A DNA stretch of 64,000 bases from IMG/VR virus record IMGVR_UViG_3300017763_003980. One strand, given 5' to 3'. The position numbers and the translations under genes were made by a program. This DNA comes from a virus (Duplodnaviria; Caudoviricetes). Under the pieces are notes generated by a model. The model was not told the origin of the DNA. It saw only the letters and a program-made list of their open reading frames with translations, and ran no database searches. This document shows, in pieces, positions 12,345-38,805 of the stretch (positions within the stretch are counted from its first letter, which is position 1; each line of letters begins with the position of its first letter).

Positions 12345-12373
12345 AAGTCAATCCTTAAATAATTTATAATACT

Positions 12374-12402
12374 ATTATAGCACCAGATCTGGCTTGCGTC
12401 AA
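12374..12402 (-). promoter_or_regulatory. sigma70-like promoter
   Basis: TTGACG-N17-TATAAT upstream of rnh. Confidence 0.7.
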
Positions 12403-13088: not shown

Positions 13089-13498
13089 TAGCTAACCTCA
13101 GACTTTCCATCTCCTGTTGAAACTATTTTAATATGTCCCATATCTCTATCTGTAGACTGTCCTTCTTCCTCTAACATTTGTACTACAATACTCTTAAACC
13201 AAGCATCTACTATAGCTTCATTTGTTTCGCCTTGATACCCTGCATCTAGTAGTTCTTCAATAAATTGATTGTTCCAATCTAATTCAAAGAATCCATTTTT
13301 AATATTTTCTGGATTAAGTTGTGTATCAAGAACTGCTACCCAAGCCTTACCTGCTTTAGTAGCTTCTTCTTTTTCACGTTCAAGCACTGCCCTACGTTCT
13401 TCTTCTGAAGTAGATTGCACTTGTACTTCAGGTTCGACTTTCTTTTTACCTAATGTATTGTTTACAAAGTTTGCAAACCAACTTTTATCTTTTTTCAT
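13088..13498 (-). CDS. hypothetical protein
   Basis: 136-aa ORF with SD GGAGAGG. Confidence 0.7.
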   Translation of the reverse strand: MKKDKSWFANFVNNTLGKKKVEPEVQVQSTSEEERRAVLEREKEEATKAGKAWVAVLDTQLNPENIKNGFFELDWNNQFIEELLDAGYQGETNEAIVDAWFKSIVVQMLEEEGQSTDRDMGHIKIVSTGDGKSEVS

Positions 13499-13506
13499 AT
13501 CCTCTC

Positions 13507-13611
13507 CTAAAAACCTTTCTGTCTTAGCCTTTCTATATCTATCGGTGCTTTCATAGCTTTTGATAGTTTTTCTTGTCTTTCGCGTTCGACTTTATCATGT
13601 ACCCCATGCAT
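13507..13611 (-). CDS. possible 34-aa peptide
   Basis: MHGVHDKVERERQEKLSKAMKAPIDIERLRQKGF fills the gap after queE and overlaps its end; weak SD. Confidence 0.35.
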   Translation of the reverse strand: MHGVHDKVERERQEKLSKAMKAPIDIERLRQKGF

Positions 13612-14494
13612 TTCCGAATAAGGATATGTGGAGTCTTGGGGTGAAACGCCATCCTCTTTCCATACACGCCTCCGCAACTTCTTGAACATTAAGGTTGTAC
13701 TCTTCCGAACGTCCGCCCAGCGGCATAAGATATACTGGACAGTCGACCCCGGCGCTACGATACTCTTCGACAGCTCTAGTAACTTCATCAAAGTCATCTT
13801 TAGTAGCAACCACAAACTTAAGATAGATATTGCTACCATCCACATTGCTATACTCACTAGCAACATCAGGCTTAATAGCAGTATCCCAAGGTTCTCCGCT
13901 AACTGATAGTTTTGGGGAACAAGACCAAGTAACTTCAAATCTGTCTTGATTGCTGAGATAGTCGCAGAAATCATCTTTGAGACGTTGCGTAGTATTTGTT
14001 TCAAATGTAACATTTTTTAAATCCTGCATGCGTGGATGTTCGAATAGCTCAATGTAAAGCCGTTGCCACGCTAACAACGGTTCACCGCCTGTCATAATTA
14101 AATGTATATCTTGTCCATTATCCATTGTCCACTTACCTTCAGGAGTAAGTGAAAGAAGATGTTCTACTACTTCATCTACTTCTTTTTGCTTATTAAAATG
14201 CTTAAACTCAGGATAGATACTTGCATAAGTATCACAGCCTGTGTGTATAATAGGCAAATCGTTAAAGTCTACAGTTGTTTTATGTACATCTTTTGCAATT
14301 AATTCTGCAACCTCTGCATTATGCTTTTTACCTGCTTTGTGTTGTTCCCAACGATCTCTTGTTTCATCTGTACCAAAATTCATACAACGAAAGTTACAAC
14401 CGAAGGTACGTAGGAATACACTAGGGACTCCTACAAATCTACCTTCACCTTGTACAGAGTAAAAAGCTTCTGAGTATCTAAGCTTATTTCCCAC
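13595..14494 (-). CDS. queE: 7-carboxy-7-deazaguanine synthase (radical SAM)
   Basis: Start refined to GTG at 14494. EAFYSVQGEG, VFLRTFGCNFRC...GCDT, MTGGEP, TFETN, SCSPK and PRLH motifs. Confidence 0.9.
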   Translation of the reverse strand: MGNKLRYSEAFYSVQGEGRFVGVPSVFLRTFGCNFRCMNFGTDETRDRWEQHKAGKKHNAEVAELIAKDVHKTTVDFNDLPIIHTGCDTYASIYPEFKHFNKQKEVDEVVEHLLSLTPEGKWTMDNGQDIHLIMTGGEPLLAWQRLYIELFEHPRMQDLKNVTFETNTTQRLKDDFCDYLSNQDRFEVTWSCSPKLSVSGEPWDTAIKPDVASEYSNVDGSNIYLKFVVATKDDFDEVTRAVEEYRSAGVDCPVYLMPLGGRSEEYNLNVQEVAEACMERGWRFTPRLHISLFGNAWGT

Positions 14495-15173
14495 ACGCGA
14501 ACTCCTGCTGAAGTTTAACATTATCGATAAACTCTTTTTTAGTTGCAGGATCGTCTTTAAATGCACCACGCAATACAGTTGTTTGTGTTAGACTACTTTT
14601 TGCTCTAATACCTCTGTTCTCACAACAACCATGTGTCGCTTGTACGTATACGCCAACGTGTTCACTACCAGTTTGCTCTTGTATTGCATTTGCAATCATA
14701 ACATTAAGCTCTTCTTGTAGTGTTCCTCGCATAGCACACCATTGTGCAATACGTGTGTACTTGCTAAGACCTAATAGTTTAGGACCTGCAATAATACCAA
14801 TGTATGCCACACCTTTTACTGTTTGGTGATGATGCGAACATAAACTTGTAAGTTCACTACGCACAACCAACATACCTTCATAACCACCTTCAATGTAGTT
14901 AGGAAATGCACTTGGGTTAGGCATTGTATCATAACGACCAGACATAATTTCATTAATGTACATCTTAGCCATACGCCTTGCGGTGTCTTGACTGTTAGGA
15001 TCTGTTTTTGTATCAATTAACAGTGTTTGTAATACATTTTCGAAAGCAGGAACTGCTTCTTCAATTAGTTGTTGCTTGTCGCCTTCTTCAAGTACTTCAC
15101 TAATGTTATCATTAGCCCAGTATCTAATACCAGCTTCTTCTAGCTTTGTTTTAATTTCTTCTACTTTGCTCAC
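14484..15173 (-). CDS. folE: GTP cyclohydrolase I
   Basis: TARRMAKMY, SLCSHH, GLSKYTR, RGTLQE, HGCCENRG. Confidence 0.95.
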   Translation of the reverse strand: MSKVEEIKTKLEEAGIRYWANDNISEVLEEGDKQQLIEEAVPAFENVLQTLLIDTKTDPNSQDTARRMAKMYINEIMSGRYDTMPNPSAFPNYIEGGYEGMLVVRSELTSLCSHHHQTVKGVAYIGIIAGPKLLGLSKYTRIAQWCAMRGTLQEELNVMIANAIQEQTGSEHVGVYVQATHGCCENRGIRAKSSLTQTTVLRGAFKDDPATKKEFIDNVKLQQEFACGK

Positions 15174-15240
15174 GTTTTATATCTCCGATGTTAAGGCAGT
15201 GGATTGCCATTAATAATAAAATACAATGCACAATAATATT

Positions 15241-15269
15241 ATTATACATTGTATTTAGGTTTTTGTCAA
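15241..15269 (-). promoter_or_regulatory. sigma70-like promoter for folE-queE
   Basis: TTGACA-N17-TATAAT. Confidence 0.8.
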
Positions 15270-15274
15270 GTATT

Positions 15275-15484
15275 TTATACAAAATACTTTTCTAGCATAT
15301 CAATACGGTCTTGTGCGGCCGCCATTTGATCAAGCTCTTTCTGTATCGTTTCAATGATATCAGAATGTTCACCAATGCCTACAACCTTTTGCATGTAAAC
15401 TTCGATGTTAGTCTTATGCAACTCTAACTCCGCCTCGGCGTGTTTGATAGCTGCATTCACCATTTGTTGCTTCAAATTATCCAT
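15275..15484 (-). CDS. hypothetical protein
   Basis: Start refined to the ATG at 15484 after SD GGAGAAAGG; helical, contains VGIGEHSD. Confidence 0.7.
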   Translation of the reverse strand: MDNLKQQMVNAAIKHAEAELELHKTNIEVYMQKVVGIGEHSDIIETIQKELDQMAAAQDRIDMLEKYFV

Positions 15485-15503
15485 ACCTTTCTCCAATATT
15501 TGG

Positions 15504-15887
15504 TTAACTTAACTGGTAATTACCTTTTTCTGGAATAACATGTCTAACGCCACCACGTGGGTCTTTAGTGTCACCATCTCTTCTAAAAATCAAATGCACG
15601 TGGGGGTACATGCAAGTTTGCCCTGCACTCTCGCCTACATTCAACCCGACATTGTATCCAGTAATATTGTTTCTATTACTTTGCACATTGTCGTAACCCA
15701 TAGTAACTGCATAATTAAAACACTTGAGGATATTCTCTTGTGTTGCTTCTCTAGGTACGATAAGAGTATGTCCTTCTGTAACCGGATAAGCATCTTTATA
15801 TACTATGAAATCTCGTGTCTCCAATTCGACATCTGTCCACGGAGCTCTGTTGTCTTGTTGTGCTAATGTTAGTGTATCAGCTTTCAT
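15504..15887 (-). CDS. HIT family hydrolase
   Basis: DAYPVTEGHTLIVP, GLNVGESAGQT, PHVHL. Confidence 0.9.
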   Translation of the reverse strand: MKADTLTLAQQDNRAPWTDVELETRDFIVYKDAYPVTEGHTLIVPREATQENILKCFNYAVTMGYDNVQSNRNNITGYNVGLNVGESAGQTCMYPHVHLIFRRDGDTKDPRGGVRHVIPEKGNYQLS

Positions 15888-16444
15888 TCGTATTTACCTA
15901 CGTTTTCCCAAGGGTAAACTAACCAAACATCTTCCTCAGCTTTGTTTACTTCGTGGGCATAAAAATTAGTATGATGGAAGTCGCTAGCTAAGTTTTCTGT
16001 AAGCACTGCAAACTTTACACTGTTGCCCCAAACACTTGCCCAAGCATTATCTTCATGGGGGAAACAACCTGACATCCAGTCATTTCTAATCCAATTAAAA
16101 GTAGCACCAGTGTCATTGATATCGTCTACAATAAGAATCTTTTTTCGTCTATCAGGATCCCATCTGCTTTTATATGTTCCTTGCTCATTATAAGGAACAA
16201 TGCCAAATGCATCTTCGGCCATTGAACAGTTACTTTCTAATATGCTACCGTCACGTAGGCTAACTTTAATTGCTTCACATGGTATACCAGTCATGTTACT
16301 AATAATTGTAGCGGGAACATTGCCACCCCTTGTAATACCTACAATATAATCAGGCTTATAGTTACTTGTATACATTGTAGTTACAATTTCTGTACACATT
16401 GTTTCAACGTCTTTCCAACTATAGAAATGCTTATTGATTACCAT
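15884..16444 (-). CDS. type I phosphoribosyltransferase (xanthine/guanine PRT-like)
   Basis: VGITRGG, PRPP loop ILIVDDINDTGAT, C-terminal WLVYPWE. Confidence 0.88.
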   Translation of the reverse strand: MVINKHFYSWKDVETMCTEIVTTMYTSNYKPDYIVGITRGGNVPATIISNMTGIPCEAIKVSLRDGSILESNCSMAEDAFGIVPYNEQGTYKSRWDPDRRKKILIVDDINDTGATFNWIRNDWMSGCFPHEDNAWASVWGNSVKFAVLTENLASDFHHTNFYAHEVNKAEEDVWLVYPWENVGKYE

Positions 16445-16913
16445 TTAAATACTCCTCACTGTCTACCCAAGTATAACCACCGTCTGAATAAGAAGTGCCA
16501 AACTTAAAAGGCATAAAGCCCCAGCTTTTTGCTTTCTTACCCATATAAAAAAGACTCCAACAAGGTATTTCATTACCATCTTCGTCTTTAGCTAATTCTA
16601 ACCAATGTAGATCATCTGAATCACGATATCTAAAATGCCCTGGTCCTCGCCATACTGACTTACTACCTACAACAGCACCTTCTCGTGATCGAATAGGTAT
16701 ATGCTCATAGTAACCGCCTTTAAGAATTAGTGTTGCATAAGACCATGGATGATCATGTAACACTTCTTCGTCACTCTTTAAAACTTTGTGTAGAGTAAAG
16801 TTAAAAGGAAACCATGTACGATCTTTTAAAAATAGATAGTATCTTATAAGATAAGGAATTTTACCTGCTCTATCGTAAATTACTCTTTTTCTGTTTTTGA
16901 AAAAACTAATCAT
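16431..16913 (-). CDS. cupin-fold protein
   Basis: LHKV...LHDHPWSYATLILKGGY-E...HWL, WSLF. Confidence 0.7.
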   Translation of the reverse strand: MISFFKNRKRVIYDRAGKIPYLIRYYLFLKDRTWFPFNFTLHKVLKSDEEVLHDHPWSYATLILKGGYYEHIPIRSREGAVVGSKSVWRGPGHFRYRDSDDLHWLELAKDEDGNEIPCWSLFYMGKKAKSWGFMPFKFGTSYSDGGYTWVDSEEYLNGNQ

Positions 16914-17301
16914 TTACTTTTTTCTTCCCCATCCAATCTTGATGAACCATTTTGTAAGTAACTTTAAAATTATCAAATGCTTTGCTCAATCCTGGATACT
17001 CTGCACACATGTCTTGTATTTTATTTAAAGTAGGTAATTGGTCTACAAAATCTACTGGATCGTGTGTAGTTAAAGTAATATCATCACTACCAAATGTAAT
17101 ATCACCACCAGTACTGATTGTAAATGTTGATGCAGGATTACTACCAATTGTAAGTGTATCAGTTGTCCAAGAGCTCATTGTAGCAGAACTGTCGATATAA
17201 CTAGTATCAATAGTATCACTTACACCAGTAAGTTTTATAGTATAATCATTATCATTTGTAAAAATATCTAACTGCTCTTTCCAATCATCGTTATTACTCA
17301 C
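16906..17301 (-). CDS. hypothetical Thr/Asp-rich protein
   Basis: Start refined to GTG at 17301 after SD GAGGAG. Confidence 0.65.
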   Translation of the reverse strand: MSNNDDWKEQLDIFTNDNDYTIKLTGVSDTIDTSYIDSSATMSSWTTDTLTIGSNPASTFTISTGGDITFGSDDITLTTHDPVDFVDQLPTLNKIQDMCAEYPGLSKAFDNFKVTYKMVHQDWMGKKKVND

Positions 17302-18352
17302 CTTTAATCTCCTCGTAAAGATCCTTGCCACTAAAAAAGTTTTTCTTAAGTTTGTTAGTTTGCTTTTGTAAAGCTGGAAGATAGTCGTCATAATTTTCCA
17401 TGTACTCAATTATTTTATCTATTACGTCTTGCTTATGTAACAAATAAGTTTGAAAATCTTTAGTCCATTCACTTGGATACTTAAATGTATCTGTAGCCAT
17501 TTCTGAATAGCTAAGTCTGTCTGGTACCATAGGAATTGCATCAACTACTGCGCCTTCATACCAACTAATACCTAGTGTTTCCTGTAAGTTTGCACTAAAC
17601 ACCATCTTAGCTTCACCAAGTAAATTATGATATTCATTCTTTGTTAGTTGTTGCTCTTGGCATACAATAAAATCATATTGTGGAAGTGACTGTCGAAGAT
17701 CATTAAAGATATCAACTTGCTTTTCAGGAGCAATTCTATGTGGAAATAATATTACATCACGTTTTTCCATATGTCGATATTGCTCTAAAGAAGTACAAAG
17801 ATACTCCATAGGCCATCCAACACGTACACTTTTTCTTTCAAAGTCTAATTCAGCTGATGCAAAGGCATCTTCGAACATATCAATGTGGAATTCGGTTGCA
17901 AAAAAATTATGATCATAACACTCATACATACTTGCTTCTGCAAGCCTAACCCAAGGTTTATCACCTATGAGTCTACCTAAAAAGTCTTGTGGATCATAAC
18001 TACCTGCATGCCACATGCCACCAATATAAATGTCAACACCTAGTAGCTCTGCCATATAACGAAGCTGTATAACAGTAGGGTTCCAAGCGTCGGTATACAA
18101 AAAATAGTCGCCATCACTAATCTTTCCTTTGCAGAAAAGCTCACCGATTTGTTCGAGTTGCTTGCTTTTATATACATTTGTTCCTCCGAAATTAAGGAAA
18201 GCTCCAGGCGTAGTTGCCTGAGGCGTTTCCCCTCCACTTATAACTAAAACTTCTTCATTTGTAGCTCGCTTTAATTGCTTTGGAAGATGCTCCTTCCATT
18301 GTGCAGTGTAACGAGTATCAACTGCTTCGATATCTACAATATGAATTGTCAT
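17294..18352 (-). CDS. GT-B glycosyltransferase (GT4-like)
   Basis: FPHRIAPEKQ and the E-x7-E motif ETLGISWYE; N-terminal WHAGSYD. Confidence 0.78.
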   Translation of the reverse strand: MTIHIVDIEAVDTRYTAQWKEHLPKQLKRATNEEVLVISGGETPQATTPGAFLNFGGTNVYKSKQLEQIGELFCKGKISDGDYFLYTDAWNPTVIQLRYMAELLGVDIYIGGMWHAGSYDPQDFLGRLIGDKPWVRLAEASMYECYDHNFFATEFHIDMFEDAFASAELDFERKSVRVGWPMEYLCTSLEQYRHMEKRDVILFPHRIAPEKQVDIFNDLRQSLPQYDFIVCQEQQLTKNEYHNLLGEAKMVFSANLQETLGISWYEGAVVDAIPMVPDRLSYSEMATDTFKYPSEWTKDFQTYLLHKQDVIDKIIEYMENYDDYLPALQKQTNKLKKNFFSGKDLYEEIKGE

Positions 18353-18355
18353 TAG

Positions 18356-18547
18356 TTACTTCCTTTTATTAAAGCCGGCCTTCTTAGCACGAAGCCACCC
18401 ACGATACCTTTCGTAAGCTTGCCAGTTTGGATCGCTCTTTTTGTAAAGAGCTTTTTCATCAAACTTCTTTCCCTCAAAGCGGCAATAGTCGCGATAAGCG
18501 TCGAGGTCGTTGAAGATCTTTGCCACAACCGGGTTTTTAATAGACAT
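18356..18547 (-). CDS. hypothetical basic protein
   Basis: Start refined to the ATG at 18547 (MSIKNPVVAKIF), 63 aa. Confidence 0.6.
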   Translation of the reverse strand: MSIKNPVVAKIFNDLDAYRDYCRFEGKKFDEKALYKKSDPNWQAYERYRGWLRAKKAGFNKRK

Positions 18548-18569
18548 AGTATAATTCTTCCTTTTGTCA

Positions 18570-19103
18570 TTAACTATTTGGATAAAAAATTGAACAGCCG
18601 TTTTCGTTATCTTCACTTACTTCAATTTCGACAAAACGGCCGGGATGTCGATTTGAAATTTCTTTATATAGTTCATCTGCAATCATTTCGCAGGATTTAT
18701 GATCTAGAACAAGCACTTGACCTTCAGCGGAATCACTGTATAGTCTTTCAAGCCATCGCTTGAACTGAATGAATTCAATGTCTCTATCATCGTGAAACAC
18801 CTCAATACGCACCCTGAAGTGGAAAATGTGACGATGAGGATGACCAAGAAAACTAACATCATCCCACCCACCTGTTGCAAGTTTGGGATCATCTAATGCT
18901 GCCGGATAACAATGAATACCTTCCTTTGAGAATGTAACCCATATACTTCGTTGTGCATTATTTAGTGCATTTTCTTTTTGCATTTTAGCATCTTCCTCTC
19001 TCATTCGTCTACCCATGTAATCATGATAGCTTTCACGATTGACTGCATCATACGATGGGTAACCTTTTTCAAAAACTGGTGATGTGTGTTCATCTTCTAC
19101 CAT
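18570..19103 (-). CDS. QueD-like T-fold protein (candidate DpdL)
   Basis: LGHPHRHIF (LxxxHRHxF) in place of the QueD CxxxHGH; DRDIEFI; SCEMIA. Confidence 0.7.
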   Translation of the reverse strand: MVEDEHTSPVFEKGYPSYDAVNRESYHDYMGRRMREEDAKMQKENALNNAQRSIWVTFSKEGIHCYPAALDDPKLATGGWDDVSFLGHPHRHIFHFRVRIEVFHDDRDIEFIQFKRWLERLYSDSAEGQVLVLDHKSCEMIADELYKEISNRHPGRFVEIEVSEDNENGCSIFYPNS

Positions 19104-19109
19104 ATTATT

Positions 19110-19138
19110 AGTATACTTTCATTTAATAGGTTTGTCAA
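19110..19138 (-). promoter_or_regulatory. sigma70-like promoter for the QueD-like gene
   Basis: TTGACA-N17-TATACT, 6 nt before the ATG. Confidence 0.7.
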
Positions 19139-19634
19139 GGCCATATTTGGACCAATTAGTAAATTTATTTGCATCCATCAAGTCATGAAGTCTGTGACTC
19201 CAAACACCTGGATTAGTTGCGGCAAATCCTTTGTCATCAATTTTAATCATAGTGTTGTAGTTCCATAGTTTTACATATGGAATCGGAACACGGATTTGCG
19301 GAATAAAATTGTCGTACTCTGTGAGACCGTCTTCCAAAATCTCTTCTGCACAAGTAATCGGAATATCTAAACTACACCAATAATCTTGTTTTAAGAAGTG
19401 TGTAATCATTTCTCCCCAACCAGGTCCGACCTTATTTGCTTGCACACTATGATTAGCACCAAAGAAAATATGTTTTACTTGATTATATGCCAATAGTTGT
19501 TCTTCGATATCTTTAACAGGTTGTACTCCTGTTACAAACAATGTATACATACCATATGCAGGAGTATGCTCTACTTCTGTACCAGTAAAGTATGTTACGT
19601 TATCAAACTCGCCTGCGTCATAATTTCTTTTCAT
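19119..19634 (-). CDS. conserved-looking hypothetical protein in the deazaguanine cluster
   Basis: 171 aa; GTEVEHTPAYG, HIFFGANHS, KIDD...NPGVW; alternating beta/alpha pattern. Confidence 0.7.
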   Translation of the reverse strand: MKRNYDAGEFDNVTYFTGTEVEHTPAYGMYTLFVTGVQPVKDIEEQLLAYNQVKHIFFGANHSVQANKVGPGWGEMITHFLKQDYWCSLDIPITCAEEILEDGLTEYDNFIPQIRVPIPYVKLWNYNTMIKIDDKGFAATNPGVWSHRLHDLMDANKFTNWSKYGLDKPIK

Positions 19635-19843
19635 GATATAGGTCCTAGGTCAACAAGTTTCTTTTCAATTCGATGTATTTCGTCTTTAAACCATAATTTT
19701 TTTGTTTTGAGTACTACAAGTTCTTGATCTGGCATTAATTTTTTATATCCTTCGATAATTTCTTTGTCCAGTGTTCTATGCTTTTTATAAAGTTCTTGTA
19801 GGTATATTGCATATTTTTCATGCTTCGCTGTGAAGTTGCTCAT
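19631..19843 (-). CDS. small coiled-coil protein (DUF465-like)
   Basis: KHRTLDKEI...LKTKKLWFKDEI. Confidence 0.6.
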   Translation of the reverse strand: MSNFTAKHEKYAIYLQELYKKHRTLDKEIIEGYKKLMPDQELVVLKTKKLWFKDEIHRIEKKLVDLGPIS

Positions 19844-21377
19844 CCTCTAGTACCTCTAACTTTTCTTCATTAAGTTCCTGCTCTTGTTCTTCTTCAACAT
19901 TATCGTCTGTGTCAAACAATGAATTAAAGTAGGTTTGTGCATTAACAGTCTTTTTACCAATAGCACCTCTAGTACCTGGTATTGACATCCAGAATTTTGA
20001 AAATTCTTCAATTACTGCATTCGCTTCGTCTCGACTGTCAGTTGCGAATATTGCTTCCACAACATCTCTAAAAAATAACCTGTCGAAACGTTCTTCAACA
20101 AGCATGTTCGGAATGATTCCATTGTCGTATTGTCTATTTGCTTCTTGTACTGCATTAATATGACTCCATACATTATGACCCATTTGGATCGCATATGAAA
20201 AACTATCCCAAGATGTTTTTCCTTCTTTACCTATTTTATTTAGATCTCCTGGACCATATATGCATATATCTTTGGCTTGTAGTTCAGCAGTAATAGGAGA
20301 ATCTTTAAAGCTAGTGTGCTTACCTTCTCTTACAAATGCACTGCCAAATGGTGTAGTATCTTGTGATAATCCTTTATCATCAATACTAGGAACCATTCGA
20401 TATACCCATTTCAATCTATCTTGTGTTTCGAGTTCACAATAAATCTGTCCATTAGCAGTTGCTAAGAAAGGACTTGCACAATCAAATGTAATCATAAAGT
20501 TTGGATTATGATATTTACGAACTGCTCTTTGTATATCAGTTAGTAGTGTAGCCCACTCTAGTTTTGATGTACCTAAGAAGTGCATTACATCATGTATGCC
20601 TGTTTCCAGTAGTCCGTCGAATCTCAATGCAACTAGACGTTTAAGAACCAAATGTACATCACACATGTTCTGACCACCCATTGACCACCCATTAAAATGT
20701 GTGTCTGGATATACTTTAGGATCGCAGTAGTCTTTCATTTGATTGTACCAATCATCTGCGTCTGCGTGATTTTCGCCTTGTAATACATTTAAAAATTTAC
20801 AAGCACCTGTTCTGTGCTTCATAAAATAATCATTGTTAATACGTGTTGCGGCTACTGCTTCTGCATATGTTGAAATACCTGTTGCTTTTGCACCTTCTGG
20901 AGAACGTGCTACCCAAGCTGGAATATCAAGTATCATTCCATAGTCCATGTAAGCATCCATCCATTTAAGAACACCGTCACGTTTCTTTTGTGCTTTAGGA
21001 CAGTTGGGATCTTTCCAGTCTCCTTCCCAAACGCCTTTACCAATTTGGAAACCGCCACTATCACCTAATAACCAAGTATTTGCTCTGTCTCTGTTTCGTA
21101 CCATATCTTCTTTAGGTACAAACTTAGTTGTGTCTAAGTCGGCATGCCCTGCAGAATACAAACACCATTTGTATTGGAACATACCTTCTTGTTTATTAAG
21201 ATAGTTTAAGCTTTCAACTCCATTTGGAAAGTTGCTAGGTACTCTAGCCGGATCAACATACGGACCTTTCACAGGATCAGGATGTCGCTGTTTACCAACA
21301 TACGTTGCAAAGAACCCGCTAAGTGCTGGTAAAAAAGTTGCGTAATCCTGTTGTGCTTTTGTCAAGTCTGTAATCAT
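19818..21377 (-). CDS. TGT-fold guanine transglycosylase, DpdA-like DNA modification enzyme
   Basis: GDSGGFQ, MILDIP, NVLQG, GWSMGG, HFLGTS and TFDCASP TGT motifs; clustered with folE and queE. Confidence 0.8.
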   Translation of the reverse strand: MITDLTKAQQDYATFLPALSGFFATYVGKQRHPDPVKGPYVDPARVPSNFPNGVESLNYLNKQEGMFQYKWCLYSAGHADLDTTKFVPKEDMVRNRDRANTWLLGDSGGFQIGKGVWEGDWKDPNCPKAQKKRDGVLKWMDAYMDYGMILDIPAWVARSPEGAKATGISTYAEAVAATRINNDYFMKHRTGACKFLNVLQGENHADADDWYNQMKDYCDPKVYPDTHFNGWSMGGQNMCDVHLVLKRLVALRFDGLLETGIHDVMHFLGTSKLEWATLLTDIQRAVRKYHNPNFMITFDCASPFLATANGQIYCELETQDRLKWVYRMVPSIDDKGLSQDTTPFGSAFVREGKHTSFKDSPITAELQAKDICIYGPGDLNKIGKEGKTSWDSFSYAIQMGHNVWSHINAVQEANRQYDNGIIPNMLVEERFDRLFFRDVVEAIFATDSRDEANAVIEEFSKFWMSIPGTRGAIGKKTVNAQTYFNSLFDTDDNVEEEQEQELNEEKLEVLEDEQLHSEA

Positions 21378-21580
21378 TATTTTCCCATATTCATTGGCGA
21401 ATATTGTTCGCCATTATATTGAGACCCAGTTTTATTTGGTCCAGTCTCAACACCGTTATTACATGCAAATACTACAACGCAAAGAAAAATTGCACTCCAC
21501 ATCAAGCCTTTCTTAGACCAAGCCATAAAGCCGTCCATAGCTTGTTCTGCTTGTTTTTGTGCTTGTTCTGCTGGAGTCAT
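21377..21580 (-). CDS. small membrane protein or lipoprotein
   Basis: Hydrophobic stretch LMWSAIFLCVVVFAC. Confidence 0.6.
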   Translation of the reverse strand: MTPAEQAQKQAEQAMDGFMAWSKKGLMWSAIFLCVVVFACNNGVETGPNKTGSQYNGEQYSPMNMGK

Positions 21581-22312
21581 TTATTTGCTCTGTGCTGGAA
21601 GTATGTAATCATATTTTGCCAAACCACTATCTACACTAATTTGCATAGCACCTTGATCACTAATACTCATAGTAATATCACCATCTAAATTTAAGATAGC
21701 TTGCACTTGTGCAACAGGCCAACTCCATGTATGAGATAATGTACCTTCGACACCAGCTTCAAAAACAAATGTACCTGCGTGTGTACTTGCATCACCAAAG
21801 CTAAACACTAAGTCATTGTCTTTAGTTGAAACATTAAATGTAGGCTCTTCTGAGTGTGCCGCACTTTGCAATTTCATTCTACCAATTGCTGCCATACTAG
21901 GTTGAAATGTTACATTCCAAGACGCACCTTTAAATTTTACACTTTTAAGTTTTTCTTCAATGATCTGTTTATTCATAAATCGATAATCATTTTCAAAGTC
22001 ACCACTTGCGTTTTCAAAGTGTATATGTGTAGGAATAACTTCACCGTTCCTATCAGCAGTTACTACATCAATTTTAGCATCTTTTTGATACTCAGGATTT
22101 TTTAAATGTAATGCTAGTTTATCTAGGTTAGGCATTCCAAATGTGCCGTTAAATTCTGACACAGCTGAGTGCGTAGTAGAATTTAAAATCACAGAACGAT
22201 CTTCTGCCATACTTTCGAAAGTTGTTGCTTCGCTTTCACTGTTTACCTTTACTAAGCTTAAAAAGCCTAGTGCGTGGGTTTTAGCAACAACGTCTTGTAA
22301 AATGTCTTTCAT
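21581..22312 (-). CDS. DNA polymerase sliding clamp (gp45/PCNA-like)
   Basis: 243 aa with a repeated beta/alpha pattern, located between replication genes; assigned from size, pattern and context. Confidence 0.65.
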   Translation of the reverse strand: MKDILQDVVAKTHALGFLSLVKVNSESEATTFESMAEDRSVILNSTTHSAVSEFNGTFGMPNLDKLALHLKNPEYQKDAKIDVVTADRNGEVIPTHIHFENASGDFENDYRFMNKQIIEEKLKSVKFKGASWNVTFQPSMAAIGRMKLQSAAHSEEPTFNVSTKDNDLVFSFGDASTHAGTFVFEAGVEGTLSHTWSWPVAQVQAILNLDGDITMSISDQGAMQISVDSGLAKYDYILPAQSK

Positions 22313-23073
22313 GCGGGTTCTCCATTAGTTATATTAAGTATAATGCCTTTATCAGCGTTTGTCAAGTAGTTTTCTATACTATATTTAGGTTTAAAGCCTA
22401 AGCTTTTCATTTTTTCTGTATTAGCACATGTAAATGTCCTTTCGTTCGGGGTATTTAGACGAATAGGAGCATCAGGTGCTAAGTCACGGACTTTAATCGG
22501 GTTACCTGATCCGATGTCTAATACTCCTTTGACATGGGGTTTATTAATTAGTATTTGTATAGCATCGCAAACATCATTAATATGTATGAAGTCTCGATGA
22601 TGGTTAGTTACGTATTCTAATTTATTGTTAAAAAGTTTATCAAGAAACATTCCTTTTCTTGGAGTGTCACTCCATACAGTATGAAATCTCATACCTAATG
22701 TATTTGGATAGCGTTCTGCTAATTCTTCTAGCACATATTTACTTGCCGCATAAGGATTTAAGTCTGGTTCGTATGCACTCGAACTGCTCGCATACAATAT
22801 ACGTGTTTCAGGATAACGCTCAAACAATCGCCTACTTGCTTCTATATTATTCTGCCAATATGCCGCAGGATCATTAATGCTTTCACGAACACCAGAACGT
22901 CCTGCTAAGTGTATAATTAAATCAAAATCTACGTTAGGTAAATCACAAGTAAGCAAGTCTTGTCCGTCTAATAAATCGATACCTACTACGTCATTGTGTA
23001 ATAGTCTTTTGTGCAATCTACTACCAATAAATCCTCTATGACCTGTTAGTAGTATTTTTTGTACGGCTATCAT
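22309..23073 (-). CDS. NAD-dependent epimerase/dehydratase (extended SDR)
   Basis: Start refined to the ATG at 23073. TGHRGFIGS, IHLAG, ASSSSAY, YAASK, RDFIHINDV. Confidence 0.9.
   Translation of the reverse strand: MIAVQKILLTGHRGFIGSRLHKRLLHNDVVGIDLLDGQDLLTCDLPNVDFDLIIHLAGRSGVRESINDPAAYWQNNIEASRRLFERYPETRILYASSSSAYEPDLNPYAASKYVLEELAERYPNTLGMRFHTVWSDTPRKGMFLDKLFNNKLEYVTNHHRDFIHINDVCDAIQILINKPHVKGVLDIGSGNPIKVRDLAPDAPIRLNTPNERTFTCANTEKMKSLGFKPKYSIENYLTNADKGIILNITNGEPA
22337..22365 (-). promoter_or_regulatory. sigma70-like promoter for the clamp gene
   Basis: TTGACA-N17-TATACT within the 3' end of the epimerase gene. Confidence 0.65.
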
Positions 23074-23789
23074 GATGCTATTCCAGACTCTTGAAAAAAT
23101 TGTAGATACTCTCTTGTTTGCTGCCAACTACTTACTGCTCTAGTGTGGTTCACAACTTGTGCTAAAGGATAATCGTTTCCGTCCTTATCCATTCTATCTC
23201 CGAAGAAATATTTAGTATCTTCGGCATCAAAGTCTTTTATAATTTGTGCTTTATCAGTGCCGATAGGTGATATATCGATACCTGTTTCTCCGCCTACTGT
23301 TGCCTTGATCTTAGGAAACAATGCATTGAATTGTCTTGCAATTATTTCACGTTCAGAAGTTAAAGAGTCATAAACTACATATTTTTCTCTTTGTTCTTTT
23401 GTTGCATTGCGACCAACAACACTAAAATTTACCATACCAGGACGATGTTCAAAATGCAATCCTGTTCGTAAGTTGAAATCACTTTCTGTGAGCTCAATAC
23501 TAAGCCACTCGTGTGCATCTTCTGGTAATATCCAATCGTTAGATCTAACATTTACATCTTTTTCCCAAACATCATTACCATTGCAATTATATACACGTTT
23601 ACAGCTATTATAAATTGTTTCGCCGATTTGTTCGAGCGTTTTAGGCCGATCACTGCCTGTAACAAGATAAACATCATTTGATTGGCAAAACGATTTAAAC
23701 CAAACTGCAAATCGTTCATCGATTACTTGCCTGCTCGGAGTTAATGTTCCGTCAACATCAAAAATAAATTTATTTTTTACTTTTTTCAC
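23070..23789 (-). CDS. phosphomannomutase, HAD-IIB (eukaryote PMM-type)
   Basis: Start refined to GTG at 23789. FDVDGTLT, VTGSD, EHRPGMVNFSVVGR, GGETGID, FFGD...GNDYP. Confidence 0.88.
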   Translation of the reverse strand: MKKVKNKFIFDVDGTLTPSRQVIDERFAVWFKSFCQSNDVYLVTGSDRPKTLEQIGETIYNSCKRVYNCNGNDVWEKDVNVRSNDWILPEDAHEWLSIELTESDFNLRTGLHFEHRPGMVNFSVVGRNATKEQREKYVVYDSLTSEREIIARQFNALFPKIKATVGGETGIDISPIGTDKAQIIKDFDAEDTKYFFGDRMDKDGNDYPLAQVVNHTRAVSSWQQTREYLQFFQESGIAS

Positions 23790-23949
23790 CCTTCTTTTTC
23801 CTTTTTGCATACATACCACTAGTATATTCTACTTCTTCAGATCTAGCACCATATGGATAAACTGTAATTTCGTTGCCTTTAGCTAACCATTCTTTGACTA
23901 ATTTTCTGTCTGCTTCAATAGCCAATCTCTTTTCTTCTGCGTCAGTCAT
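23770..23949 (-). CDS. hypothetical 59-aa protein (not in ORF track)
   Basis: MTDAEEKRLAIEADRKLVKEWLAKGNEITVYPYG...; ATGA overlap with the upstream stop. Confidence 0.6.
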   Translation of the reverse strand: MTDAEEKRLAIEADRKLVKEWLAKGNEITVYPYGARSEEVEYTSGMYAKRKKKGEKSKK

Positions 23950-24362
23950 TTCTTCTCCGTGTCAGCTACTCGTGAACGTAAATCACTTGTGCTGAATCGG
24001 TGATCTCGTTTATTAAAATGCAAATCTATATCTCTACTACGACATATATCCTTGCCAGTAAAATCCTTATCGCGATATTCTTCTCCTAATATTCTAATGT
24101 TTATAGGATACATCTGCAAAATATCTTCTAAATCTTCTTCTGTGCCATAAGGGATAATTTCATCTACATAACCAACTGCTTTTAATTGTGTATAACGTTC
24201 TACAATAGTTTGTATTGGTGAGTTCTTTTCTTTTCTATCTACGCTAGGATCAACTTGTAACCCCACTAACAAATAGTCGCATTGCTCTTTCGCTTCACGT
24301 AGCATAATTACATGTCCTGCATGTAATAGATCAAATGTACTGCAAGTAAATCCTACTTTCAT
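23946..24362 (-). CDS. cytidylyltransferase (TagD/RfaE-like)
   Basis: FDLLHAGH (HxGH), LLVGL, RDHRFSTS. Confidence 0.88.
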   Translation of the reverse strand: MKVGFTCSTFDLLHAGHVIMLREAKEQCDYLLVGLQVDPSVDRKEKNSPIQTIVERYTQLKAVGYVDEIIPYGTEEDLEDILQMYPINIRILGEEYRDKDFTGKDICRSRDIDLHFNKRDHRFSTSDLRSRVADTEKK

Positions 24363-24691
24363 TAGTGTTTCCTTTGCCCGTCAAAGACGCAAATAAAATA
24401 CATGTCTGCATCACGTGGATTTATTACTTTATGGAATACACCATCATTGATAGGTACTACATCGCCTGCTTCTACTTCGATAAATTCATTATCCAATTGC
24501 ATTTGTCCTGCCCCTTCGATAAACAAATATACTTCTTCTTGTCCATCATGTTTATGTCCACTTGTTTCTTTATGTCCGTGTAATCTGGTACTGCTTAGGA
24601 CTAGTGTATTACCAAAAGGATTGTCTTTAACAACATACCTATCATCTTGTTTTGCAATATAACCGCCTATGTCATCCAGATTTACTTTCAT
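24362..24691 (-). CDS. cupin protein (mannose-6-phosphate isomerase-like)
   Basis: GHKHDGQEEVYLFIEG...GVFHKVIN. Confidence 0.8.
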   Translation of the reverse strand: MKVNLDDIGGYIAKQDDRYVVKDNPFGNTLVLSSTRLHGHKETSGHKHDGQEEVYLFIEGAGQMQLDNEFIEVEAGDVVPINDGVFHKVINPRDADMYFICVFDGQRKH

Positions 24692-24792
24692 TGTCTCTCC
24701 TTTAGTTCTTTTAGTACATCCATTATTTGTTCTACTAAGTCTGCATCATCAGGCTTATCAGAATCAATTTCAATCTCTACTTTAATTTTCAT
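24688..24792 (-). CDS. hypothetical 34-aa protein (not in ORF track)
   Basis: MKIKVEIEIDSDKPDDADLVEQIMDVLKELKERQ; SD GGAGA; ATGA overlap with the cupin gene. Confidence 0.6.
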   Translation of the reverse strand: MKIKVEIEIDSDKPDDADLVEQIMDVLKELKERQ

Positions 24793-27462
24793 TTATTCTC
24801 CAAAATCAAATAAACTGTTAAACGTATTGTTACGCTTTGTATCTTCTAACGGATAGTTTAGCACACCAATTAAGTTGTCTAGCTTATTATCAATAATAGT
24901 TTCTGCCATTGCTGCATCGTCAAATGGCAGTTCTTTGAACCAATCAGGTATATGAAGCTCATCTGTTGGATAAGCAACACTTGTATACCCTAGTGGGTTC
25001 TGTTTTAATTTACAAACAATAACTTTCATACCGTCAACAATTTCTTGCGAATACTTGTCGCCATTCATGCGTTTAAGTGTATTCCAGTTAATGCTTGCTC
25101 GTACATGACCAGGCATATTTGCCTTGCCTTGTTTTTCTTCTAGTCGCTGATAGTGACCAATTTTATTAGCACGTTTCGGCGAACCCTTTTCCCAACCAGG
25201 ACGTTCACTAAACTCTTTACGGAATACAGTAATACGTTCTAGTACATCTTCTACTGGCTTGTCTGTTAGTACCATTAGTAATAGTTCACTTAAAAACTCT
25301 TGCATAAACACAGGTGTATCTGATCTACGCAAGTCTAAGCCCATAGCTTTTACTTTTCCAGCTTTGCCATCAACGTCAGTTCTAAACCCTTCGTTGTCAA
25401 TTACTAGTGCTGCATAACGTTTCTTAGTAATATATAATCCGCTTTCTGCAACAATTTCTCTACCAGCTGCAATAACTTCTGCACGACTTGCTGGACAGTG
25501 AAATGCTTGGGCCATAAATTTTGTAAACGTACTATCTACAGCCTCGCTTACTTGATCATAAAGCTTAATAGCATTTTCTTTTGACCATGGAATTTTACCT
25601 GAATCAATATCAGCTTTAAGTGTTGGGTATGCACTAAAATATACAGAGTCAGTGTCACCATAAATTACTGCTTCACCTGTGTGATCATACTTACCTGCAA
25701 TGACGTTGTTAGCTTCTGCACTCATATGCTTAACAATAGTTCGACCACTTAGTGTGGTTGATTGACCAATTCTTTTATCAAAAAATCTACAGCCTGGATT
25801 TAAAATAGCACCATACAAACTATTCAAGTTAATCTTCTTAACAAGTTGACGTTTGTCCCAGTATTCAATTTCAATAGAATTGCCTGCGTCTTTTGCTTTT
25901 TTAAGTTGTGCTTGTAGATCTTTACGTTCACTATACCAACGCTTTAGAAGTCCAGGAATAACACCTTCGTATTCTGTTGTAAAAATTGTGCCATTTGAAC
26001 TAAGCATCCAAGGTTTATTACTATCAAAGATTACTTTGTATATTTCAGCACCACTCATTACCTTTGATTCGCCGTTCTCAAAGTCAACTGTAAGTGCAAC
26101 ATCTTTGCGTTGCTCCATAACAGCTTCGTATTCTTCTGTACTAAAACGCCCTTCCCAACTACCTGCAAATGACTTTTTCTTTAGACCCATATCTTCTGTT
26201 ACACGAGCATCTGAAATATCAGGACGTATTTGTCCAACAATAGTTGCCGGATCCATATTCAATGCACGAATTACACTAGGATATAGACTGTTCAAGTCCA
26301 TACTTGCAATCCATTTGTGCAGTCCTTTTTTCGGAAATGCCACATACGCACCTGCGGCTTGTGTGTTTTCATCATCACGTTTTGCACGATTAGGAACTTG
26401 CATGCCTCGATGATGTGCTTCGTTGACAATGGCTTGTTCTGTAACTGCTACGGCCCCCATAGTGGTTTGTAGCAAAACAGTGTTTGCATGAGCAAGTTCG
26501 TTACTAAGATCAATAAATCTTAGTTTTTTGTCCAGCTTGTCCAGTAGTGCGGTATCTTGTATGTTGTATTCGATGAACTTTCTAAAGTCATTGTTGTACA
26601 ATGCGTCCAAAGTACCTTCATAAGGGACCTTGTTCTCGCCAACTTCGATTTCGCCAATGGCATCAAGTCTATATGTGTGTCTTTCTTCATATGTATATTT
26701 ACGATATAAATTCAAACTATCTAAATGCACTCTGCCTATTAGGTCAAAGGTTTGTGCTATTTTACCATACTTTTCATATTCACGCTTCTTAGGAAGTTGT
26801 CCCCACAAGCAAAATCTACGTGTGTCATCTTTGCTTAGTACACGAGCAGTTCTGTTTACAGTATAAGGAATATCATAACCTTCGCTGTTCCAACCTGATA
26901 AGATATCACTATCTTCAATCAGTGTCAAGAAAGTGTCAATCATGTCACCTTCTTTTTCAAACAACATTACATTGTCGATACCTTCAAGTTCTTTTTTAGC
27001 TTCGTCCATAGTAAGTGTCTTAGGAGGAACAGCCAAGCATACCATTGTTTCTAACCATTGCAAGTATACTGAGATACTTGTAATAGGCATAAAGGGATCA
27101 CTTGGATCAGCAAAGCCTCTCTCTGGATCAAAGTCAGTCTCAATATCAAAGAATGCAATGTTTAGTTTAGGTGCATCTTGATTAAGATAGTTTTCACTTA
27201 AACATTGAAATATAGGATTAATGTCGCTTTCGAATAGTTGCTTGTCTCTATTAATAGCAACTTCTTTGCGGAAGTCTTTTGTGTTTTTGCAAACAATACG
27301 ACTTAGTGGGTCACCGTATATACTTTTATACTTGCCACGTTGGTCTTTGTAATAAAAAGTATACTTTACCGGATACTCTGTAAAATGTCTTTTGCCTTCT
27401 CGACGTTCAACAGCTCTAATAATATCAGAATCTCTATCGAACATTGCGTCCACGTAACTCAA
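24793..27462 (-). CDS. family B DNA polymerase (gp43-like)
   Basis: ExoI DIETD, ExoII WNSEGYD, ExoIII YNIQD; polymerase motifs DLNSLYPS, KINLNSLYG, YGDTDS; TTG start after SD GAGGAGG. Confidence 0.96.
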   Translation of the reverse strand: MSYVDAMFDRDSDIIRAVERREGKRHFTEYPVKYTFYYKDQRGKYKSIYGDPLSRIVCKNTKDFRKEVAINRDKQLFESDINPIFQCLSENYLNQDAPKLNIAFFDIETDFDPERGFADPSDPFMPITSISVYLQWLETMVCLAVPPKTLTMDEAKKELEGIDNVMLFEKEGDMIDTFLTLIEDSDILSGWNSEGYDIPYTVNRTARVLSKDDTRRFCLWGQLPKKREYEKYGKIAQTFDLIGRVHLDSLNLYRKYTYEERHTYRLDAIGEIEVGENKVPYEGTLDALYNNDFRKFIEYNIQDTALLDKLDKKLRFIDLSNELAHANTVLLQTTMGAVAVTEQAIVNEAHHRGMQVPNRAKRDDENTQAAGAYVAFPKKGLHKWIASMDLNSLYPSVIRALNMDPATIVGQIRPDISDARVTEDMGLKKKSFAGSWEGRFSTEEYEAVMEQRKDVALTVDFENGESKVMSGAEIYKVIFDSNKPWMLSSNGTIFTTEYEGVIPGLLKRWYSERKDLQAQLKKAKDAGNSIEIEYWDKRQLVKKINLNSLYGAILNPGCRFFDKRIGQSTTLSGRTIVKHMSAEANNVIAGKYDHTGEAVIYGDTDSVYFSAYPTLKADIDSGKIPWSKENAIKLYDQVSEAVDSTFTKFMAQAFHCPASRAEVIAAGREIVAESGLYITKKRYAALVIDNEGFRTDVDGKAGKVKAMGLDLRRSDTPVFMQEFLSELLLMVLTDKPVEDVLERITVFRKEFSERPGWEKGSPKRANKIGHYQRLEEKQGKANMPGHVRASINWNTLKRMNGDKYSQEIVDGMKVIVCKLKQNPLGYTSVAYPTDELHIPDWFKELPFDDAAMAETIIDNKLDNLIGVLNYPLEDTKRNNTFNSLFDFGE

Positions 27463-38804: not shown

Positions 38805-38805
38805 A

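Follow-up and report, generated by a model that had tools for sequence, protein, structure and literature searches.

A GT4-Type Glycosyltransferase Linked to a DpdL/DpdA System in a Marine Jumbo Phage: A Candidate Route to Glycosylated 7-Deazaguanine in DNA

Introduction

The subject here is a gene for a glycosyltransferase (GT) that is found within a 64,000-nucleotide stretch of virus DNA, i.e., from IMG/VR record IMGVR_UViG_3300017763_003980 (Duplodnaviria; Caudoviricetes). That stretch, referred to as the window, is part of a jumbo-phage genome of roughly 340 kb, with absences noted below at the scale of the window covering those 64 kb. With moderate confidence, the window is viewed as the replication module of a marine jumbo phage which also carries a DpdL/DpdA system, that is, one predicted to place a 7-deazaguanine into DNA, with the GT most likely glycosylating that deazaguanine.

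Linkage of the Glycosyltransferase to Deazaguanine Genes

Upon tblastn searching of 50,697 phage records, the window GT matches 22 and the adjoining DpdL matches 28, with 17 records common to both. Those 17 consist of 11 from the PA5oct group, two of ACP17, Phosso, BUDD along with X1, and BCSR5. Not just co-occurrence but adjacency is seen. Thus, DpdA, GT, and DpdL genes are contiguous in the PA5oct group, overlap or abut in ACP17, and occur in the order GT-DpdA-DpdL-QueE in BUDD and X1, while DpdL and GT share a 4-bp overlap in Phosso and are found within 3 kb of each other in BCSR5. DpdA homologues, specifically, adjoin the GT in PA5oct, BUDD, and ACP17. Approximately ten phage lineages, including the cultured phages PA5oct, ACP17, Phosso, BUDD, and BCSR5, possess the GT beside DpdA, DpdL, or indeed both.

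The same pattern is seen with metagenomic lineages (individual loci of this analysis are designated with an L). In L013 and L014 the GT is 53% identical to that of the window, and in L015 and L016, at 45% identity, it is accompanied by a canonical QueD, QueE, a phosphoribosyltransferase (PRTase), FolE, DpdL, and a DpdA-like gene. Among 80 IMG/VR relatives, which were obtained via a related-locus search employing an eight-sequence GT alignment, DpdA, a conserved protein of 171 amino acids (aa), DpdL, GT, PRTase, FolE, and QueE all are found in every locus that extends far enough to include them. When 8 kb of sequence was compared by megablast with the phage collection, no match was returned.

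The other five of the 22 GT-matching records are Xanthomonas and Erwinia phages (Ep026, Ep032, PhiXhv-12, -15, and -16), which display 26% GT identity and are without DpdL. The one of these that was inspected, Xanthomonas phage PhiXhv-15 (L103:328-8755), encodes a GNAT protein, three unknowns, a GATase-QueC fusion, a PIG-L deacetylase, the GT, and a GFO/IDH/MocA oxidoreductase, a row of genes that looks like an amino-sugar tailoring set joined to a G+/preQ0-type pathway. With Gat-QueC taken as the neighbour in these five, as seen in the one inspected, the GT of all 22 records is read as being no more than a few kb from deazaguanine genes.

Linkage extends as well to bacteria. Bacterial assemblies, sampled as one genome per species, provided 40 GT loci, and in approximately 34 of them a DpdA-like gene is found beside the GT, with the exceptions nearly all short contigs. 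Several of these loci come from isolates of Alphaproteobacteria, Shimia, Sulfitobacter, Ochrobactrum, Devosia, Pelagibacterium, and Methylobacterium among them, where they are part of a chromosome or a large contig. DpdL, FolE, and QueE are missing from many alphaproteobacterial GT loci, with Methylobacterium and Aurantimonas nonetheless keeping DpdL. As so many bacterial loci thus keep both GT and TGT-fold DpdA (TGT for tRNA-guanine transglycosylase) without those biosynthetic genes, the minimal conserved pair is therefore the GT together with DpdA.

In 16 alphaproteobacterial loci (L111-L114, L116-L122, L131-L134, and L136), the GT is adjoined by a conserved hydrophobic protein, roughly 170 aa long and weakly matching Vut_1/YhhQ, and the same islands carry, along with GT, DpdA3-like, and YhhQ-like proteins, a large, conserved, uncharacterised protein of 585-853 aa. 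Defence genes are found near the GT in the two loci that were annotated, GmrSD in Ochrobactrum (L113) and ABC-3C plus AAA_15 in Shimia (L132). Neither the GT nor the DpdA-like proteins nor their bacterial neighbours match any PADLOC model. The alphaproteobacterial islands may represent a system, for DNA modification or for defence, that is as yet undescribed.

A GT distributed independently of dpdA and queE is one of the outcomes that the initial annotation had named as refuting its proposal of a sugar-decorated deazaguanine. What is seen instead is dependence, with DpdL shared by 17 of the 22 phage records and a DpdA-like gene by approximately 34 of the 40 bacterial loci. This gene-neighbourhood evidence supports the GT as belonging to the deazaguanine system rather than as being a chance neighbour.

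The Glycosyltransferase

Scans against Pfam, PHROG, and NCBIfam return no GT family for the window GT, their sole match being a sub-threshold one to Rsbr_N, and phmmer of this protein against PDB sequences provided nothing useful. Relatives are more informative. The PF00534 (Glycos_transf_1) family is matched by 35 of 64 diverse members of the GT family (best E 6.5e-07) and PF13439 by two of those 64, while the family profile matches PDB 8xsg, a glucosyltransferase, at 2.9e-06. The family itself is large, consisting of 1148 clusters at 50% identity (E <= 0.001), and upon searching at 90% identity at least 8000 homologues were scored, all of them significant.

An AlphaFold model built on the 64 sequences (pLDDT 96.5, pTM 0.93) displays two Rossmann-like domains, i.e., a GT-B fold. 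Its best structural matches are GT-B enzymes of GT4 type, namely BshA, MshA, glycogen synthase, sucrose-phosphate synthase, PimA, and PglA, with a Foldseek probability of 1.00 and VIA Z of 22-26, reaching about 26 with BshA, MshA, and sucrose-phosphate synthase, over approximately 300 aligned residues (root-mean-square deviation of about 3 Å). The phage T4 enzymes AGT and BGT are not among the structural matches listed. Similarly, QTMAN_N (PF12038) is found neither among the families matched by the 64 members (E <= 0.01) nor among the best 30 Swiss-Prot fold matches.

The initial annotation had described the gene as GT4-like based on an E-x7-E motif, and this description is borne out by the modelled GT-B fold along with conservation of the motif, which is found in the C-terminal domain as E258-TLGISWY-E266. 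Across the 64 sequences E266 never varies and E258 is conserved in at least 90%, and R206, K211, and the EX7E residues are, as a group, invariant or nearly so despite identities of 26-53%. Modelled fold and motif place the protein with confidence among the GT4-type, GT-B (retaining) glycosyltransferases, with transfer from an NDP-sugar as its predicted activity. Residues R206, K211, E258, and E266 lie in the part that aligns with Glycos_transf_1 and, judging from that alignment, probably bind the donor. The protein is strongly acidic, with a computed isoelectric point (pI) of 4.85 and a net charge of about -21. The 72-aa protein that is encoded between DpdL and the GT is instead very basic, possessing 16 K+R versus 1 D+E, and BLAST detects homologues of it only in the closest relatives (L008-L012), with none among the 80 IMG/VR loci.

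The Deazaguanine Gene Block

Every gene of this region is carried by the minus strand, at the coordinates first annotated. Transcription proceeds from a family B DNA polymerase (PolB) through a cupin, nucleotidyltransferase (NTase), phosphomannomutase (PMM)-like protein, SDR protein, and clamp, then to the 519-aa TGT-fold protein, DUF465, and the 171-aa protein. These are followed by the QueD-like/DpdL protein of 177 aa, the 72-aa basic protein, GT, two small proteins, PRTase, HIT, FolE, and QueE. Subsequent to QueE are a 136-aa protein, a 2-oxoglutarate (2OG) oxygenase, and a 5'-3' exonuclease. Pfam matches and coordinates agree with the gene content and order initially annotated, with the GT between the QueD-like gene and PRTase/HIT/folE. 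The block extending from the TGT-fold protein is as follows, in transcription order:

19818-21377, minus strand: putative divergent TGT-fold DNA transglycosylase, DpdA3-like, 519 aa (DSGGFQ and FDCASP motifs; AlphaFold2 (AF2)/Foldseek)
19631-19843, minus strand: DUF465
19119-19634, minus strand: conserved 171-aa protein, accompanying DpdA3; no family match
18570-19103, minus strand: DpdL-type T-fold protein, QueD paralogue, 177 aa, proposed decarboxylase of 7-carboxy-7-deazaguanine (CDG) (LxxxHRHxF; homology)
18352-18570, minus strand: very basic 72-aa protein between DpdL and GT (computed pI 12)
17294-18352, minus strand: GT4-type GT-B glycosyltransferase, 352 aa, E258-x7-E266 (AF2, Foldseek, VIA)
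15884-16444, minus strand: 6-oxopurine-type PRTase (PF00156)
15504-15887, minus strand: HIT-family protein (PF01230)
14484-15173, minus strand: GTP cyclohydrolase I, FolE (PF01227, E 1.8e-37)
13595-14569, minus strand: QueE-like radical SAM CDG synthase (weak Radical_SAM/Fer4_12 matches; homology to PA5oct, ACP17, and 9g QueE)
13088-13498, minus strand: conserved 136-aa protein (homologues PA5oct gp324, Phosso gp235, and in marine relatives)

The true start of the QueE open reading frame probably is later than annotated, given lengths in relatives of 294-298 aa. Scans with Pfam, PHROG, and NCBIfam gave no informative family for the GT, DpdA-like, DpdL, 171-aa, 160-aa, and 136-aa proteins.

The 177-aa protein was initially considered to be QueD-like. 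It possesses, however, the sequence FLGHPHRHIF, as do its PA5oct, Phosso, and ACP17 homologues, which corresponds to LxxxHRHxF and not to QueD's CxxxHGH. The LxxxHRHxF motif is the signature of DpdL, a proposed CDG decarboxylase, and separates DpdL from QueD (Hutinet, Cui et al., NAR 2023, PMC10516641). Using tblastn, the window protein finds the DpdLs of Cellulophaga phages phiST, phi13:1, and phi19:2, with 70% of the query aligned at 30.6% identity (E 7e-7), and in the DNA of those phages 2'-deoxy-7-deazaguanine (dDG) replaces every G (PMC10516641). The GT-adjoining homologues of PA5oct, Phosso, and ACP17 are closer, at 56-65% identity, and in library searches phrog_17812, a family without an assigned function, is the only match. 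Based on motif and homology, the window protein is proposed to be DpdL-type, i.e., a predicted decarboxylase of CDG to 7-deazaguanine. That activity is itself a proposal even for described DpdLs, with reconstitution in E. coli having failed (PMC10516641).

Other DpdL configurations were encountered as well. In Vibrio phage Bakedbeans, a phage without the GT, DpdL constitutes the C-terminal part of a 383-aa fusion, gp176 (L102:5260-6411). In Rhizobium phage RHph_I1_18 (L018:7971-9232), a DpdL that is 57% identical to the window's has, in place of an adjoining GT, a macro-domain (Appr-1-p processing) protein after it.

The 519-aa protein matches nothing in Pfam or PADLOC, and neither phmmer with the DpdA-like protein nor searching with the DpdA profile against PDB was useful. 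Its AF2 model (pLDDT 75) nevertheless has, as its best 50 Foldseek PDB matches, solely tRNA-guanine transglycosylases (E ~1e-6, probability 1.00). The sequences D106-S-G-G-F-Q and F298-D299-C are invariant or nearly so in homologues down to 18-21% identity, and these DSGGFQ and FDC motifs we take to be the TGT catalytic motifs. Profile comparison using hhalign is weak with phiST DpdA3 (E 5e-4, probability 32%) and is not significant with 9g DpdA1, though the DSGG motif aligns. Going by its modelled fold, the protein would appear to be a divergent TGT-fold DNA transglycosylase that is DpdA3-like.

A member of the window's DpdA subfamily, 596 aa in length (hidden Markov model E 9e-60), occurs also in Vibrio phage 2.275.O._10N.286.54.E11 (L144:5908-12609), there in the company of QueF, a YhhQ-type transporter, QueC, an aminohydrolase, and FolE. 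This cluster looks like a preQ1-type variant. A 370-aa neighbour of DpdA in this phage was considered as a possible GT and rejected, as it is not a GT homologue.

As to remaining members of the block, homologues of the 171-aa protein adjoin DpdA3 in ACP17, in L013 and L014, and in all marine relatives, with no similarity seen to CGPG_00066 of phiST. The closest PDB relatives of the PRTase are purine and hypoxanthine-guanine PRTases, and this gene is conserved in marine relatives, L014, and L015, and weakly in PA5oct. The HIT gene follows that of the PRTase in L008-L012 and was detected in most, though not all, IMG/VR relatives. Searching using tblastn with 9g and ACP17 QueC and QueD sequences found no QueC and no canonical QueD within the 64-kb window.

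Elsewhere in the window, also on the minus strand, are a protein with an Mtd_N (major tropism determinant) N-terminus (1601-3130), a CN_hydrolase (nitrilase-superfamily) protein (9877-10674), a ClpB-like AAA+ chaperone adjoining a DnaJ homologue (36558-39660), and an 821-aa subtilase (60725-63190).

The Polymerase-Clamp Island

Four genes between those of the polymerase and the sliding clamp were initially annotated as resembling a nucleoside diphosphate (NDP)-sugar supply route. All four domains are real according to Pfam, and are located upstream of the TGT gene as had been described:

24793-27462, minus strand: PolB, upstream boundary of the island (PF00136/PF03104)
24362-24691, minus strand: small cupin, accessory island, possessed by a minority of relatives (PF07883, Cupin_2)
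23946-24362, minus strand: cytidylyltransferase-like NTase, accessory island (PF01467, CTP_transf_like)
23070-23819, minus strand: HAD-IIB PMM-like protein, accessory island, variable among relatives (PF03332, phrog_29277)
22309-23127, minus strand: extended-SDR nucleotide-sugar epimerase/dehydratase-like protein, accessory island (PF01370/PF16363)
21581-22312, minus strand: sliding-clamp homologue (phrog_12062; Phosso homologue annotated as sliding clamp)

That they form a supply route dedicated to the GT, in contrast, is not supported. Cassette counts rest on the 51 IMG/VR relatives among L019-L098 whose loci extend from polymerase to clamp. In those 51, the polymerase-clamp interval is hypervariable, ranging from 64 bp to 3.9 kb, with two of them having no genes there at all. 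Of the four cassette genes, that of the SDR protein is the commonest, occurring in most, followed by those of the NTase (many), the PMM-like protein (some), and the cupin (few). Other genes, including unrelated ones, share this slot, encoding an Rv2179c-like exoribonuclease (13 loci), a tryptophan halogenase (L084), ALAD/hemB (L062 and L064), HhH-GPD, DoxX, and ferredoxin-reductase-like proteins, a 2OG oxygenase, and a UDP-glucose dehydrogenase-like protein. In L011 and L012, the NTase alone of the cassette remains and yet the GT is kept. No comparable cassette is seen beside the polymerase in PA5oct, Phosso, ACP17, or L013/L014. All 51 relatives, that is, keep the GT while the cassette varies or is missing, and the cassette is absent from those GT lineages outside of this clade whose region was seen.

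Affinities of the cassette proteins are various. PMM-like homologues occur in cyanophages S-SSM7 and P-TIM68, neither of which is among the GT or DpdL matches, and in S-SSM7 annotated nucleotide-sugar epimerases are found near this homologue. The NTase is nearest to ethanolamine-phosphate and glycerol-3-phosphate (TagD) cytidylyltransferases and to RfaE domain II, all below family cut-offs. PDB relatives of the SDR protein include dTDP-glucose 4,6-dehydratase and GalE. Sugar genes do, furthermore, drift into the deazaguanine module, so that a link between cassette and GT is better called unlikely than disproved; close relative L009 carries KdsA (DAHP_synth_1) and KdsB (CTP_transf_3) around QueE, i.e., flanking a QueE-sized gene inside of the deazaguanine cluster (L009:13875-16445).

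From these comparisons the cassette is read as a separate, hypervariable accessory island that is not obligatory to the deazaguanine system. Because R206, K211, E258, and E266 of the GT are conserved in lineages both with and without the cassette, a common host NDP-sugar is suggested as the GT's donor.

A Glycosylated Deazaguanine as the Proposed Explanation

What is demonstrated are folds, motifs, and gene linkage; which acceptor and donor are used, and in what order the steps occur, is in what follows proposed from these. FolE and QueE would make CDG, with the QueD step that falls between them supplied either by a canonical QueD that is encoded elsewhere in the genome or by DpdL as a stand-in. 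The T-fold DpdL would then decarboxylate CDG, and the large TGT-fold DpdA would exchange guanine in DNA for the resulting deazaguanine. The GT would be a dedicated add-on that uses a common NDP-sugar of the host to glycosylate the deazaguanine, either on DNA following insertion or instead on the free base prior to its insertion by a roomy DpdA. The glycosylated deazaguanine would shield DNA from nucleases. The PRTase plausibly recycles the guanine that is displaced by transglycosylation to GMP/GTP for use by FolE, or instead activates the deazaguanine base.

What of the acceptor? The 2-amino group is the one acceptor that is common to all candidate bases, i.e., 7-deazaguanine, CDG, preQ0, and G+. 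HuiG, of the huimycin pathway of Kutzneria albida, is a GT-B enzyme with a Glyco_transf_4 domain (PF13439) which is encoded beside folE, queD, queE, and queC, and which places N-acetylglucosamine (GlcNAc) onto the 2-amino group of a 7-deazapurine (PMC7439116, bioRxiv 2026.04.15.718813). A deazaguanine that is free of hydroxyls thus can serve as a GT acceptor, as HuiG glycosylates just such an amino group. Two observations from cultured phages can be set beside this. PA5oct DNA resists restriction enzymes with G-containing sites, via a modification that is chemically unidentified (PMC12191111), and expression of ACP17 dpdL and dpdA in E. coli, without the GT, yielded no dDG, with the authors suggesting that further enzymes may be needed (PMC10516641). 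Extended to specific organisms, the proposal becomes tentative, somewhat short of an even bet: that the DNA of PA5oct, ACP17, Phosso, and BUDD might carry glycosylated 7-deazaguanine, with the sugar perhaps N-linked at the 2-amino group, and that GT and DpdA along with the YhhQ-like transporter might represent the modification arm of a restriction-modification-like island in some Alphaproteobacteria.

Several points weigh against the GT as acting on a deazaguanine that is destined for DNA. The GT is absent from seven DpdL lineages (phiST, RHph_I1_18, Ahp1, Bakedbeans, and others), and Vibrio phage 2.275.O possesses a DpdA of the window's subfamily but no GT. The GT cannot be required for deazaguanine insertion, since phiST makes dDG without one; it is read here as an optional extra step that has been added to a deazaguanine-insertion system, with dependence that is one-sided. 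Unsubstituted 7-deazaguanine, which is what DpdL would be expected to yield, in addition has no hydroxyl; a sugar would need to attach at N2, at O6, or at a carbon, unless DpdL catalyses something other than decarboxylation. An acidic GT whose best matches are to small-molecule enzymes also means that a free-base acceptor fits better than does DNA. Lastly, of the sugar-decorated 7-deazaguanine that was initially put forward, the tie between GT and deazaguanine genes stands, owing to linkage, while the sugar on a DNA base is a deduction from genes rather than from chemistry. No deazaguanine of phage DNA that is glycosylated or bears a hexose came up in searches of the literature, and in the 2023 DpdL paper the word-stem 'glycosyl' is absent (PMC10516641).

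Alternative Explanations

A GT acting upon a free base raises the question of whether its product reaches DNA at all. The GT might glycosylate a free small molecule of the pathway, i.e., a deazapurine base in a huimycin-like manner or instead a pterin, with the product never entering DNA and serving as an antimetabolite, as a signal, or in the trapping or export of an intermediate. Consistent with this are the protein's acidity, best structural matches that are to small-molecule GTs (BshA, MshA, LmbT), the precedent from HuiG of a GT4-type enzyme that glycosylates a free 7-deazapurine, and the adjoining DpdL being a T-fold protein, a fold which binds pterins and purines (PMC10516641). The GT's most constant partner, however, is the TGT-fold DpdA, which acts on nucleic acid, and the pairing of GT with DpdA in bacterial loci without biosynthetic genes points to DNA as the end point, leaving the free-molecule possibility as unlikely. 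Only slightly less probable, and likewise unlikely, is the full model as initially annotated, in which cupin, NTase, PMM-like, and SDR proteins together make a special NDP-sugar that the GT then uses on deazaguanine. The four domains indeed are real, their genes are 4-6 kb upstream and transcribed in the same direction, and some relatives add an aminotransferase, a UDP-glucose dehydrogenase-like protein, or KdsA plus KdsB, suggesting sugar diversification. Set against that model are the interval's hypervariability and non-sugar genes, with the GT kept in all of the relatives including the two of 51 that are empty and the two with NTase only (L011/L012); the GT lineages outside of the clade that, where the polymerase-clamp region was seen, are without the cassette; conservation of the probable donor-binding residues regardless of cassette presence; PMM-like homologues in S-SSM7 and P-TIM68, outside of the GT and DpdL matches; and an NTase that is closest to alcohol-phosphate cytidylyltransferases.

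The two other explanations are much less probable. Phage GT4 enzymes often act on surface glycans, and jumbo-phage replication modules are syntenic, so the GT could be unlinked to the deazaguanine base, modifying instead host or virion glycans, or another base (a hydroxymethyl-pyrimidine), while simply sharing a conserved position in the replication module. The GT remains linked, though, in genomes as unrelated as those of T4-like ACP17 and of jumbo phages and in bacterial loci that adjoin defence genes, and does so while gene order changes and codons overlap; scanning of window genes, i.e., over 64 kb of approximately 340 kb, also gave no hydroxymethylase resembling thymidylate synthase, all of which makes such independence improbable. 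Those same overlaps, i.e., of start and stop codons with DpdA or DpdL in several lineages, would suit a GT-fold protein that has become a non-catalytic partner of DpdA, such as a DNA- or base-presenting subunit, just as DpdB assists the bacterial DpdA. This last is the least probable of all, as EX7E, K211, and R206, which an active GT4 enzyme would be expected to possess, vary little or not at all over 64 sequences, and as the GT homologue of PhiXhv-15 is flanked by sugar-tailoring proteins, i.e., the PIG-L deacetylase and GFO/IDH/MocA oxidoreductase. A GT which glycosylates the deazaguanine of a DpdL/DpdA system remains the preferred reading.

Occurrence and Significance

DNA that is near-identical to that of the window is found in seawater and other marine metagenomes from ten studies dating from 2016 to 2025. 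Three studies contributed four RNA libraries whose short contigs match, without mismatches, parts of GT, DpdL, DpdA, QueE, FolE, and the cassette (window 12300-24800), with only the covered stretches being interpreted. These are a weak sign of transcription, as carried-over DNA may account for them.

To our knowledge, DNA glycosylation is limited to hydroxymethyl-pyrimidines, and we know of no 7-deazaguanine of DNA that carries a sugar. If the preferred reading is true, then this would be the first sugar-bearing purine analogue in any DNA, and indeed a new class of DNA hypermodification in very abundant marine jumbo phages. It would also name the G modification of PA5oct, a candidate phage for therapy, and offer a reason for the failure of dDG reconstitution from ACP17 dpdL plus dpdA alone. 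Recognition of modified DNA by END nucleases, Dag glycosylases, and GmrSD-type enzymes may be affected as well. The idea is testable now, using cultured phages. Four items are new here: an analysis of the hypervariable island by which sugar cassette and GT are told apart, the bacterial islands of YhhQ-like protein, GT, and DpdA, the placement of distant GT homologues beside Gat-QueC and PIG-L, and HuiG as precedent for an N2 acceptor.

Comparison with Known Systems

The dDG system of phiST (PMC10516641) resembles that of the window in possessing FolE, QueE, a DpdL with LxxxHRHxF, and a TGT-fold DpdA, in having no QueC (for the window, within its 64 kb), and in its location beside replication genes. 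It differs in its lack of a GT homologue and in the size of its DpdA3, which is 259 aa versus the 519 aa of the window. Relative to phiST, that is, the window adds the GT, PRTase, HIT, and 171-aa proteins, and has no canonical QueD within its 64 kb.

T-even phages glucosylate hydroxymethylcytosine (hmC) using GT-B enzymes, i.e., the alpha- and beta-glucosyltransferases of T4, which are encoded among genes for replication and nucleotide metabolism. The T4 hmC system, as the window is read here, thus provides a similar arrangement, with a GT-B enzyme that is encoded near replication genes and which would decorate a non-canonical base against nucleases. In the window, however, the sugar would be accepted by a purine analogue that lacks a hydroxymethyl group, and a hydroxymethylase was not seen among the window open reading frames scanned.

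Two further likenesses involve sugars on 7-deazaguanine derivatives. HuiG, which is likened here by description, acts on free, O-methylated preQ0 toward a secondary metabolite, and does so with no DpdA. QTMAN and QTGAL, at least as represented in a paper that cites the original work (Zhao et al., Cell 2023, cited in PMC11782371), transfer mannose or galactose onto queuosine in animal tRNA. These two, as so described, are like the preferred reading in that a GT acts on a 7-deazaguanine derivative that already has been TGT-inserted into a nucleic acid, but differ in that the substrate is tRNA and the acceptor a cyclopentenediol hydroxyl, which is absent from the window system.

The bacterial Dpd systems (DpdA/DpdB/DpdC, with dPreQ0 and dADG) share with GT loci a TGT-fold DpdA that inserts a deazaguanine, and bacterial GT-DpdA loci are found near GmrSD and ABC-3C. 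Rather than DpdB and DpdC, however, the partners of DpdA in GT-DpdA loci are a glycosyltransferase and a YhhQ-like membrane protein.

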